Below are positions 8,619-11,441 of a stretch of 64,000 nucleotides of DNA, piece by piece. The notes below the pieces were generated by a model. It searched no databases and was not told the origin of the DNA. It worked only from the letters and a program-made list of their open reading frames with translations. Position numbers and translations under genes: made by a program. Position 1 is the stretch's first letter; each line of letters begins with the position of its first letter. The stretch is taken from sequence record PQ287649.1; one strand, written 5' to 3'. Source of the DNA: Pseudomonas phage HHBS47_1.

Positions 8619-11441
8619 TTAAAAGAGTGAGAGAACACTCCGGGAGGTATACAAGGAATGGGTTTCAGGTTCATCCCCTATATCAAACATTTCTTGGCCG
8701 GTGATATTACCCAACAACTCATGACCCTGTTCTTTACTCATAAGAATGTCCACTTGTTCCTTAGACCATTCCATGATGTTAATACTGCGGGTCATAATGT
8801 TGAGTTTATCCCCGGTGTCCATATCCAAGAGTTTAAAGTAACAGGGAGCATCCTGGCCAGTACGCCAGGTACGGGCTTGGACCTGTTTCACTTCATACTC
8901 CCGGAAAGGCGCATTCAACAGAATGGTCAGGTTCGCCATAATCAAGGGATACCCTTCCTTCAGGGAATCAAAGATCGCAATCAACGCACGGAGAGTGGGG
9001 TCTTTCTCAAAGCGTTTGATATTGGCGTCTCGTTCACTGCTGTTTTCACCGTATACTGTCACATTCGGATACCCGACCTTCGTGAGGTATTCTTCACAGA
9101 GTTTAAGGGCGTCCACGTAGGAGGTAAAGATCAGAGTCTTCTTCTCCACGTTATCGATGAGCTCAGGGAGTCCTGCGTGCGCAATGGTGTCCTTAATAGC
9201 GTTAATACGGGCTCGTCCTAAAACGTTCCCTAAGGCCTCTCCACGCAGTTTTAGACCCAAGTACTTAACCGCAGACTTAATGTTCCTGAAATCCTTCAGG
9301 GCGGTCCCTTTAAGGCCCTTCTCGATGTCTTCTTCCACCCGCTTACAGAACTGACTGTCTTGGTTATCCGTAAAACTGTTATACCCCCGGGTTCTGAACC
9401 GGTGAACAATCTGTTTGTACTTCAACAGATTCTCAACCGCTTTAGCATTCCCCTGGATGGACAGTTCATACGACGTCAGAACATCGTTGTAGAATTCCAA
9501 GAAGCTCGGCATGTGTTTCGTATAGAACGCAATCCGTTCTCCAATGTAAATCTGCATTTGGAGGCGAATAGCATCCAAGGTGTATTGATCCGAATTCGGG
9601 ATCTTTACCTTAACCAGTTCCATAGGAGGAGGATCGCCCAATCCCACCAGTTCAGGGATCGTAAACTTCATACGTCCAATACGCCGGCTCAGCAAATCCA
9701 TTAACGAGGGACGGTTACGTCCATAGGACGCCATAAAGAACTCCCGAGCCTTCTTATCGAAGTAGGGATCGATCATACAAGTCGTTGGGAAGATCTCACT
9801 CCCCTGTGCCTTTAGCGGGGTCCCGGACATCGGAAGGTGATGCCCGAACAGTTCCATGTCGCACCATTCGATCAACTTCCGTGTACGGGCTGCTTTAGGG
9901 TCATTGAAGTTCTGGGATTCATCCAGAATCATCTTCAAAGCGCCTTTATGCTTCTTACTCAGCGTAATGAGGAAGTTCTCCAAGTATTTCCCCATAACAC
10001 TGGTCATGTAATCGTAATGGACGATGTAGAAGTCATACCCTTCTTCTAAGACCTTACCGCTGATACTGGTCCAGATACGGGGTGGAACCTTAAAGTGCTG
10101 GAGGGGTTGTTCTACCCAGACTTTATCCACAATGTTCATAGGGCAAAAGACAACCGTCGGAGCTGTATTGATCAATTGAGACCACGCCAAGGACGTAAAG
10201 GTATTGTGGGTCACGATGTAGTCATCCACCACATACAGCTTCTCGTCATTATCCAAGGCAATGCAGCAAGTCTCTTGATTCTCCACTTTCTCCCAGTGTA
10301 CTAGCTTCAGTTGCAGGTCTTCATACTGGGAGAAGTTATACATTCCTTGAATACGGGGATTGTCTCCAATTAACCCAGTCATCATCTTGTCGACGTCTCG
10401 GTGCTTAAAGTCAACCTTATACAAACCGTTAACCAACACTGGCTCCGTAGCTGTTCCTCCAATGGACCACATTAACCGACGGAAGTTCTCCATCCCAATC
10501 CGGTTCTCGTGATACGCGGATAAGACGGATTCACTGATTAAACACCCCACGTGTTCAATCACCGATGTGACTATATTAAAGCGATCCCGATACGGGAACT
10601 CCAATACGTTGTCCCCTATTACAACGTCGGTATTGACCAGCTCCCTTGCAGCGGCTTCAGACGAAGTATTACAAGGGACGCTGTATCCATTGATCTCACC
10701 CACTAAGGGGAAGTACACGTCCTCTTTACGGGCTTTATGGAGTACTTCCAACGTGGTTAAGATTTCATCGATCCCATTCACCGTGGTTTTCCACAAATGA
10801 TACGGATGAGAGTCAGCCGTTCTACCGTCTTCGAAATAGAAGCGATAAACTTCCGTGATCCCCTGAGGGTAAATACTCTCCACACACGCGGTATCACCTC
10901 CAGGGGTCACTACGATATCCTTGACCTTCAGGTCACCCAAGGCTTTCCACCCATTTGGGACTTTAACCCGGGTTGAGAGAGGCATGGCTTTCCCTGAACC
11001 TGGTTTAGCATCCAGCAGCATCCCTTTCAAGTGATAACTGTTCACAATGATCGGGTATTGCTGAAGAAAGTCCAACTGCTGAGGAAAGGGAACTGTGTTG
11101 AACTGATTCAGTTTCTTAAGATCAAAAGGTTTACCTCCCGGATTAACCGTATCTTTAATCCAGGTCTCGGTTTCAATGAGTTCCTTCAGTTCACTCAACG
11201 CTCGTCTGCGGGTACGAAGGTTCCGTATTTTGAGGAGTTCCCCCACAATGTGGTGCAATTCTACCAGGAAGAAGTTATGCACCTTAATGGTGTCCCAGGA
11301 TTCGCGTCGAATCTGATGTTTCGTTAAGAGAGAAGTGCTGTAGAACTTCTCAATGTCTTTGGCTAAATCGTAATAGGACACACCCGTAATGTGTACGTAG
11401 TCTCCCGTTTGTTTTATCTTAACTGAAAACAGTCCTAACAT
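8619..11441 (-). CDS. SNF2-family (SF2) helicase/ATPase interrupted by an in-frame intein
   Basis: Extein motifs: Walker A GSGK/T (reconstituted after intein removal), DExx box MILDESQNF, motif IV LIFTSY, motif VI QARTWRTGQ. 262 aa between GSGK and TFTSLAW are Hint-like (see intein feature). Confidence 0.75.
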   Translation of the reverse strand: MLGLFSVKIKQTGDYVHITGVSYYDLAKDIEKFYSTSLLTKHQIRRESWDTIKVHNFFLVELHHIVGELLKIRNLRTRRRALSELKELIETETWIKDTVNPGGKPFDLKKLNQFNTVPFPQQLDFLQQYPIIVNSYHLKGMLLDAKPGSGKAMPLSTRVKVPNGWKALGDLKVKDIVVTPGGDTACVESIYPQGITEVYRFYFEDGRTADSHPYHLWKTTVNGIDEILTTLEVLHKARKEDVYFPLVGEINGYSVPCNTSSEAAARELVNTDVVIGDNVLEFPYRDRFNIVTSVIEHVGCLISESVLSAYHENRIGMENFRRLMWSIGGTATEPVLVNGLYKVDFKHRDVDKMMTGLIGDNPRIQGMYNFSQYEDLQLKLVHWEKVENQETCCIALDNDEKLYVVDDYIVTHNTFTSLAWSQLINTAPTVVFCPMNIVDKVWVEQPLQHFKVPPRIWTSISGKVLEEGYDFYIVHYDYMTSVMGKYLENFLITLSKKHKGALKMILDESQNFNDPKAARTRKLIEWCDMELFGHHLPMSGTPLKAQGSEIFPTTCMIDPYFDKKAREFFMASYGRNRPSLMDLLSRRIGRMKFTIPELVGLGDPPPMELVKVKIPNSDQYTLDAIRLQMQIYIGERIAFYTKHMPSFLEFYNDVLTSYELSIQGNAKAVENLLKYKQIVHRFRTRGYNSFTDNQDSQFCKRVEEDIEKGLKGTALKDFRNIKSAVKYLGLKLRGEALGNVLGRARINAIKDTIAHAGLPELIDNVEKKTLIFTSYVDALKLCEEYLTKVGYPNVTVYGENSSERDANIKRFEKDPTLRALIAIFDSLKEGYPLIMANLTILLNAPFREYEVKQVQARTWRTGQDAPCYFKLLDMDTGDKLNIMTRSINIMEWSKEQVDILMSKEQGHELLGNITGQEMFDIGDEPETHSLYTSRSVLSLF
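10203..10988 (-). other. intein (262 aa, aa 152-413 of the helicase) inserted in the P-loop between GSGK and T
   Basis: Block A-like AMPLSTRVKVPNGWKALGDLKVKDIVVT. Block B TADSHPYHLW. C-terminal ...CCIALDNDEKLYVVDDYIVTHN followed by +1 Thr. No Cys/Ser at position 1 (Ala); Trp after the block B His, Cys in block F and Thr-His-Asn terminus fit the class-3 (WCT) pattern. Central ~190 aa has only a degenerate LAGLIDADG-like stretch (MTGLIGDNP). Confidence 0.6.

Follow-up and report, generated by a model that had tools for sequence, protein, structure and literature searches.

The window analysed here, 64,000 nucleotides of Pseudomonas phage HHBS47_1 (sequence record PQ287649.1), an EL-like jumbo phage, contains a gene for an SNF2-type helicase, an orthologue of gp166 of Pseudomonas phage EL, whose Walker A motif is split by a segment of 262 residues. 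We put the probability that this segment is a class 3 intein, predicted from its residues to splice itself out of the helicase precursor, at roughly 85%. Read in this way, the gene annotated as encoding 940 residues is one for a predicted mature product of 678 residues. A second conclusion concerns the excised 30-kDa protein, which combines a Hint domain with half of a LAGLIDADG domain: in sister lineages the helicase portions on either side of it (the exteins) appear to have been cleanly lost at least three times, and we hold the odds to be even that the protein has a selected function of its own.

The helicase gene and its product

The gene is 97.5-97.9% identical in nucleotide sequence to its counterparts in seven EL-type records, which label it 'DNA helicase', 'putative ATP-dependent helicase domain' or, in the case of EL gp166, 'DarB-like antirestriction', and none of which mentions an intein. 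'DarB-like antirestriction' is also the RefSeq family name attached to NC_007623, NC_048821, NC_042136 and others, and elsewhere the names 'RapA-like' and 'virion-associated SNF2 helicase' are in use. We found no intein annotation in the GenBank and RefSeq records of this helicase family, and with the intein unannotated the length of the mature protein would be mis-stated in all of them.

Several features place the protein among the SNF2/Swi2-type helicases of superfamily 2. It matches phrog_62 (DNA helicase) at an E value of 2e-116, and the C-extein holds a DESQ motif II and, with it downstream of the insert, a Helicase_C lobe recognised by Pfam at E values of about 1e-8 to 1.9e-8. A profile of the exteins has SNF2/Rad54, CHD1L, Fun30 and Ino80 as its top PDB matches (for example 1z63 at 1.5e-11), and conceptual removal of the intein yields a 678-residue, 78.2-kDa protein in which the canonical GSGKT Walker A is restored. 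The Pfam model of the SNF2 N-terminal region gave no score on the helicase. In a comparative study the Swi2/Snf2 helicase of this phage group has been linked to phage RNA polymerases (PMC7824862).

Evidence for a class 3 intein

The insert lies in frame between Lys151 and Thr414 of the precursor, with GSGK finishing at residue 151, and it occupies a conserved site across which intein-free homologues read straight through. Its junctions are ...LLDAKPGSGK, then AMPLSTRVKVPNGW, and DDYIVTHN, then TFTSLAWSQ. The original prediction, made from the letters of the DNA, had placed the element at 10203-10988, as 262 residues that separate GSGK from the threonine completing the motif, and translation bears this out to the base; the residues that it named (Ala1, His64 with Trp66 two positions further on, Cys241 and Cys242, Thr260-His261-Asn262, and Thr+1) are all in place.

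Class 3 inteins are distinguished by the lack of an N-terminal nucleophile and by the WCT triplet (Trp B:12, Cys F:4, Thr G:5), whose cysteine takes up the N-extein as a branched thioester (PMC2807308, PMC3196547, PMC4031507). We examined these positions in an alignment with 33 relatives, comprising 16 helicase-borne homologues, 13 free-standing forms and four allelic inteins, the last two groups being described below. The residue register was set by HMMER alignments to Mycobacterium smegmatis (Msm) DnaBi1, which reads HQW and VRCVEV at the relevant positions, and to gp41-1_WCT, which reads HLW and LICIEV. Position 1 offers no Cys, Ser or Thr nucleophile and is Ala in all 33 relatives. The triplet is made up of Trp66 (block B reads ..SHPYHLW, with Trp66 at His64 +2), Cys242 and Thr260, and the insert ends in Asn before a Ser/Thr-type +1 residue, reading H-N then T in every helicase-borne homologue; Ala1, His B:10, Trp B:12, Cys F:4, Thr G:5, His-Asn and Thr+1 are invariant in all 16 of these. 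Of the two block F cysteines that had been proposed, both are present (the block reads ETCCIAL), but only Cys242 is conserved, in 16/16 helicase-borne and 13/13 free-standing homologues, whereas Cys241 is variable and is replaced by A, L, V or Q elsewhere.

Comparisons with known inteins point the same way. Searched against PDB with phmmer, the insert matches gp41-1_WCT at 1.5e-6, gp41-1 at 5.6e-4 and the class 3 Msm DnaBi1 at 1.5e-3, and the alignments cover its first 70 residues and, at the other end, block F/G; the closest solved sequences are the class 3 DnaBi1 and also the class 1 gp41-1. Its PHROG matches are to intein-containing terminase, primase and helicase-loader families only. An AlphaFold model, built from a 46-sequence alignment, has the Hint fold with blocks A, B, F and G, and its splicing domain superposes at 1.6 Å on MchDnaB1, with a sequence identity there of about 24%. 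Together with the SNF2/Rad54 profile matches and the empty and occupied alleles described in the next section, this fold upholds the proposal of an intein with the class 3 signature in the Walker A of an SNF2-type helicase.

By analogy with class 3 inteins studied elsewhere, splicing might proceed as follows. The thiol of Cys242 (F:4), held in a Cys-His64-Thr260 arrangement with Trp66 as a buttress, would attack the Lys151-Ala152 bond, which would leave the N-extein as a thioester branch on Cys242. The N-extein would next be handed on to the hydroxyl of Thr+1, Asn262 would cyclise with the help of His261 and so free the intein, and an O-to-N acyl shift would link Lys to Thr and form the GSGKT Walker A of the SNF2-type helicase. 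The products predicted from the 107.9-kDa precursor are 78.2 and 29.7 kDa. In the middle of the element would sit the remnant of a LAGLIDADG homing endonuclease that has lost one half and its catalytic acids, with homing probably gone and the element passed on by vertical inheritance.

In intein-bearing lineages the exteins evolve at a ratio of nonsynonymous to synonymous substitution rates (dN/dS) of 0.06-0.08, at dS 0.6-1.0, and such strong purifying selection on a helicase whose P-loop is split in the gene implies that splicing must repair the P-loop. It could be argued instead that the insert never splices, and is either a permanent domain or part of a helicase that is inactive, or a pseudogene, and kept for another reason. 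Database records do annotate one helicase, and the free-standing relatives show that the helicase can be lost. But besides the constraint on the exteins, none of the eight residues at the splice junctions and catalytic positions varies among the 16 helicase-borne homologues, although some of these residues decay once the exteins are gone, and most orthologues lack the insert altogether, all of which makes a non-splicing insert hardly credible.

Empty and occupied alleles

In tblastn searches the spliced extein finds 230 phage records, most of which match as one ~2.0-kb piece, as do most of 80 loci in IMG/VR. Explicit alignment shows an uninterrupted GSGKT in Erwinia phage RisingSun (54% identical), Pseudomonas phage OBP and Klebsiella phage Miami. 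Occupied sites are found as well: 14 EL-like IMG/VR contigs carry the same type of intein at GSGK, then T, and Shewanella phage FishSpeaker, Aeromonas phage CF8, Photobacterium phage PDCC-1 and Vibrio phage VP4B have allelic inteins that resemble the EL type both in their insertion point (GSGK, then T or S) and in Ala1, H-x-W, Cys F:4 and T-H-N. The splicing halves of the FishSpeaker and CF8 inteins are homologous to that of the window intein (E values of 1e-24 and 3e-10). These two inteins, of 355 and 358 residues, keep both LAGLIDADG motifs, unlike the 262-residue EL type, and score 37.6 and 30.4 bits with Pfam LAGLIDADG_3 against a cutoff of 22.5; those of PDCC-1 and VP4B, at 227-228 residues, have been shortened in a different manner from the EL type. 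The empty sites and the allelic inteins exclude the alternative raised with the original prediction, namely that the segment is a normal inserted domain present in all SNF2 relatives.

The central domain and homing

The middle of the intein is occupied by a domain of about 135 residues, modelled at a predicted local distance difference test score of 89-98, whose predicted fold is LAGLIDADG: one alpha-beta-beta-alpha-beta-beta-alpha half preceded by a remnant of the first LAGLIDADG helix. It had been suggested that the element is a mini-intein or has an inactive homing domain. The first does not fit an element of 262 residues with a folded central domain, a mini-intein being a splicing domain only, of about 130-170 residues. 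The second is likely: active LAGLIDADG endonucleases have two halves, or form a homodimer, with a conserved acid in each, whereas here the positions aligned to the catalytic Asp/Glu are Val, Ser, His and similar residues that vary among relatives, and with no conserved catalytic acid the central domain is probably nuclease-dead. The domain had also been called degenerate, and it is truncated, but we see no decay: with dN/dS at 0.05-0.12 in most pairs (0.23 in one) it is under purifying selection, and at the protein level it evolves about 2-3.5 times faster than the exteins.

One might still suppose that the element is a mobile homing intein whose LAGLIDADG domain is active, perhaps as a single-motif homodimer, and cuts the intein-free helicase alleles of co-infecting phages. 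The fold of the central domain is that of LAGLIDADG, same-site allelic inteins with complete two-motif endonucleases exist, and a Glu145 is found near the end of helix 2 in 11 of the 16 helicase-borne homologues, with the free-standing P0008 group having a Glu at the next-but-one position. Yet compared with FishSpeaker and CF8 the EL-type intein has lost the catalytic acids and the first beta-beta-alpha-beta-beta half, neither LAGLIDADG helix has a conserved acid at its C-terminal end, and the Pfam LAGLIDADG models give no score on the window insert. In addition, the divergence of the intein tracks that of its flanks, and GC content, both overall and at third codon positions, is equal between intein and exteins, which supports long vertical inheritance. 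We consider continued homing quite unlikely, and favour a splicing intein with a probably inactive nuclease remnant.

Several points weigh against our interpretation of the insert as a class 3 intein under selection. The Pfam and NCBIfam models do not detect this divergent intein. Position B:7 is a His where Thr/Ser is usual. When the WCT residues were grafted onto the class 1 gp41-1 intein, no productive splicing resulted (PMC7664689), so the class 3 signature alone is no proof of the mechanism. Finally, the central domains of the window and of EL differ by 10 nonsynonymous and 5 synonymous changes, a dN/dS of about 0.57 from small counts, and constraint may be weaker in the EL/window lineage.

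The changes between the window and EL are concentrated in a loop that precedes the helix-1 remnant. Residues 102-107 (window 10674-10691) read YSVPCN here and CNPHCD in EL, and five of the 11 amino-acid differences between the two inteins fall at residues 102-105 and 107. A small tract may have been replaced here, or the stretch may be a local hot spot.

A tblastn search with the intein found no second copy elsewhere in the window, and weak matches at 25.4, 46.6 and 52.6 kb were set aside as chance since they lie in unrelated ORFs (open reading frames), among them that of a thymidylate-kinase-like protein with an intact P-loop. The intein query matches three separate places in the genomes of EL, phiRU, IR-QUMS-PaBa1 and MIZ-Pa99, from which it would follow that EL-type phages carry at least two further related inteins outside this window. 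InBase presumably holds an entry 'PP-PhiEL Helicase', along with inteins of ORF11, ORF39 and ORF40.

Free-standing relatives without a helicase

The proteins closest to the intein in the large databases are complete ORFs of 248-309 residues (P0001-P0011, P0016-18 and P0047) from metagenomic EL-like jumbo phages, each consisting of the intein plus 7-26 N-terminal and 0-17 C-terminal extein residues. The N-terminal stretch often has a helicase-like start (MLNLFS..., MFKLFSV...) and GK at its end. These free-standing ORFs occupy the helicase locus of EL, after gp169-like, DUF7194/gp168-like and gp167-like genes, in contigs that reach 239 kb; one of these ORFs, P0003, was recovered on ten contigs from ENA, Logan and JGI. 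We considered whether they might be truncated gene calls or artefacts of contig ends and rejected this, as each is a full ORF that lies within its contig and is flanked left and right by conserved genes. Deletion of both exteins with retention of the intein at the same locus is seen in at least 13 EL-like phage lineages, all of them metagenomic.

The contig of P0002 (L010) is colinear with a helicase-bearing IMG/VR contig (L028) at 78-90% nucleotide identity save for two clean deletions. The first is in frame and leaves the first 18 and the last 6 codons of the N-extein; the second takes out the C-extein between about codon +4 and its stop and leaves the ribosome-binding site of the next gene intact. 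Trees of the intein and of neighbouring genes, made by neighbour-joining without bootstrap support and with dS saturated for many distant pairs, interleave the free-standing and helicase-borne forms, which implies at least three independent extein losses. A single ancestral loss was rejected because P0002 nests in a helicase-bearing clade (82% nucleotide and 88% intein amino-acid identity). Among the EL-like IMG/VR contigs, 14 have helicase and intein and three the intein alone, and in two pattern-seeded scans with different helicase motifs we found no helicase on these three, one of which is near-complete at 219 kb. These observations suggest that a helicase conserved across related nucleus-forming jumbo phages, with 230 records matching, is dispensable in some lineages.

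Freed from the exteins, the inteins have kept some residues and lost others. Ala1, His B:10, Trp, Cys F:4 and Thr G:5 are kept in 13/13 aligned free-standing forms, and one free-standing pair (P0004/L030) has a dN/dS of 0.072 at dS 1.13. Three free-standing forms lack His-Asn and end in VTR, and P0008, P0010 and P0011 have Leu or Phe at +1. P0047, which is syntenic with the others, has no splicing residue left (Ala1, His B:10, Cys F:4 and the T-H-N end are lost) and keeps the central-domain motifs E130, D135-R136 and W174-S175-x-G177-G178, a pattern that suggests a selected function that needs no splicing chemistry. Judged from these residues, the free-standing proteins would form a series from fully splice-competent through capable of N-terminal cleavage only to devoid of splicing residues.

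We speculate that the excised intein, or its central domain on a Hint scaffold, has been domesticated and given a selected function of its own, for example in DNA or RNA binding or as a self-cleaving factor. Such a role would add to splicing and does not exclude it. The complete ORFs at the helicase locus, the clean deletions between L028 and L010, the repeated losses, the low dN/dS of P0004/L030, the missing helicase on the free-standing IMG/VR contigs, the retention of the residues of the N-terminal step where several forms have lost His-Asn or the +1 nucleophile, and the central-domain motifs of P0047 all speak for it. Against it, all of the free-standing forms come from metagenome assemblies and none from a cultured phage, the absence of the helicase rests on pattern-seeded scans and a single near-complete contig, the trees and many dS values have the limits given above, and the central domain appears less constrained in the EL lineage itself. 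On balance we see the case for domestication as evenly poised. If it is correct, this intein would be the first seen to outlive its host gene, a case of prokaryotic or viral intein domestication, and would bear on the long-standing question of whether inteins ever benefit their hosts. One phage clade offers three states (helicase with intein, and the lone intein with its chemistry either intact or dead), which amounts to a natural experiment, and whether the intein protein has a role in its own right can be tested directly with phage EL on P. aeruginosa, a system open to cultivation.

Two further observations concern this locus and this protein type. The divergent neighbour of the helicase gene, an EL gp167-like gene on the plus strand (window 11441-12637), encodes 398 residues here and 477-541 in several phages with free-standing inteins, the longer homologues occurring on L013-L015, L169 and L170. 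A protein of an uncultured phage in BFVD (A0A6J7WN65, rank 41; 293 residues, 'DOD-type homing endonuclease domain-containing protein') was matched by the whole intein model with a template modelling score of 0.69 on the target, and free-standing Hint plus LAGLIDADG proteins may exist in other phage groups too.

Table 1. Positions of the helicase, of the predicted intein and its parts in the window, and of free-standing relatives on metagenomic contigs
Feature	Position	Strand	Basis or remark
Helicase precursor gene, 940 aa, 107.9 kDa	8619..11441	-	Single unbroken ORF (ORF list); orthologue of Pseudomonas phage EL gp166
N-extein, aa 1-151, with the start of Walker A (PGSGK, 10989-11003) at its end	10989..11441	-	Alignable with intein-free orthologues up to GSGK
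Predicted intein, 262 aa, 29.7 kDa, precursor aa 152-413	10203..10988	-	Translation, PDB sequence matches, predicted fold
Block A (AMPLSTRVKVPNG), Ala1 in place of the usual Cys/Ser nucleophile	10950..10988	-	Ala1 shared by all 33 aligned relatives (16 helicase-borne, 13 free-standing, 4 allelic)
Block B (GRTADSHPYHLWKT), His61 (B:7), His64 (B:10), Trp66 (B:12)	10785..10826	-	Aligned to HLW/HQW of gp41-1_WCT and Msm DnaBi1; invariant in homologues
Central truncated LAGLIDADG-derived domain, intein residues about 79-216	10341..10754	-	Helix 1 remnant, helix 2, then beta-beta-alpha-beta-beta-alpha
Helix-1 remnant, intein residues 110-119		-	
LAGLIDADG helix 2, intein residues 133-146	10545-10592	-	
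Block F (ETCCIALDNDEKLY), Cys242 = F:4 (codon 10263-10265), predicted class 3 nucleophile	10233..10274	-	Aligned to Msm DnaBi1 (VRCVEV) and gp41-1_WCT (LICIEV)
Block G and +1 residue (DYIVTHN, then T): Thr260 (G:5), His261, Asn262, Thr+1	10200..10223	-	Translation; Thr+1 would complete GSGKT after splicing
C-extein, aa 414-940, motif II DESQNFN (9903-9923) and Helicase_C lobe	8622..10202	-	Pfam, PHROG and structure-profile matches
Free-standing intein-only ORFs	L009 162-1025; L010 954-1883; L011 10001-10834; L013 10001-10840		Metagenomic EL-like jumbo phages
Free-standing intein-only ORFs	L014 10001-10747; L015 10001-10882; L169 6001-6861; L170 3950-4789		Metagenomic EL-like jumbo phages
Free-standing intein-only ORFs	L016/L017/L030 about 4001-4831		Metagenomic EL-like jumbo phages
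P0047	L218 6001-6813		Syntenic free-standing form, on 3 contigs, two >200 kb

Comparison with known systems

A class 3 intein in the P-loop of a phage helicase is of a well-known kind, and taken alone this finding is an ordinary correction of annotation. A profile of the intein reaches 11,401 cluster representatives at E<=1e-3, and its relatives include 228 phage records and 225 BFVD viral models, with terminases, helicases and primases making up the majority. The hosts of class 3 inteins include DnaB, RecG, SNF2 and terminase proteins, with insertion mostly at the P-loop (PMC2807308), and a review assigns them a phage origin (PMC4031507). The original prediction had thought such an intein unusual in a large phage helicase; with these phage-derived elements being typical of helicase and terminase P-loops (PMC2807308, PMC4031507), and with 228 phage records, that view does not hold. 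Literature searches on helicase inteins of phage EL, phiKZ and jumbo phages returned nothing specific to the EL intein, and a search on 'free-standing intein' and similar phrases returned no paper.

The closest known systems are the class 3 inteins in helicase P-loops, namely those of Msm DnaBi1 (6BS8), Mch (6RIX/6RIY), mycobacteriophage Bethlehem DnaB and presumably Deinococcus radiodurans Snf2. Like these, the window intein has no N-terminal nucleophile, the WCT triplet, a His-Asn end and a Thr/Ser at +1 (PMC2807308), and like MchDnaB1, whose N-extein ends in SVGK at the same GK, then T sub-site (PMC7664689), it is inserted after the GK of Walker A. It differs from DnaBi1 in its host, a chimallivirus SNF2-type helicase and not DnaB, and from the solved DnaBi1 mini-inteins in its truncated LAGLIDADG domain and its B:7 His. 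PI-SceI, an intein of the VMA1 type with a LAGLIDADG endonuclease, stands further away: it is class 1 (Cys1), has a complete and active two-motif endonuclease with an extra DNA-recognition region, and is about 10% identical to the window intein.

For the free-standing proteins, yeast HO/WHO (PMC7282813) set a precedent for an extein-free Hint plus LAGLIDADG protein with no need of splicing. HO/WHO are eukaryotic active nucleases fused to zinc fingers, whereas the phage proteins have no catalytic acids and originated in place when their own host gene was deleted. Type B bacterial intein-like (BIL) domains cleave without splicing (PMC4031507), and in this they resemble the free-standing forms that lack His-Asn or the +1 nucleophile. 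Arth_1007 of Arthrobacter FB24, from the class 3 clade, has tiny exteins that total 66 residues (PMC3196547), as the free-standing forms do, but it has no Cys F:4, did not splice and has been classed as a pseudogene (PMC3196547), whereas the phage ORFs keep Cys F:4 in 13/13 cases and evolve at a dN/dS of about 0.07.

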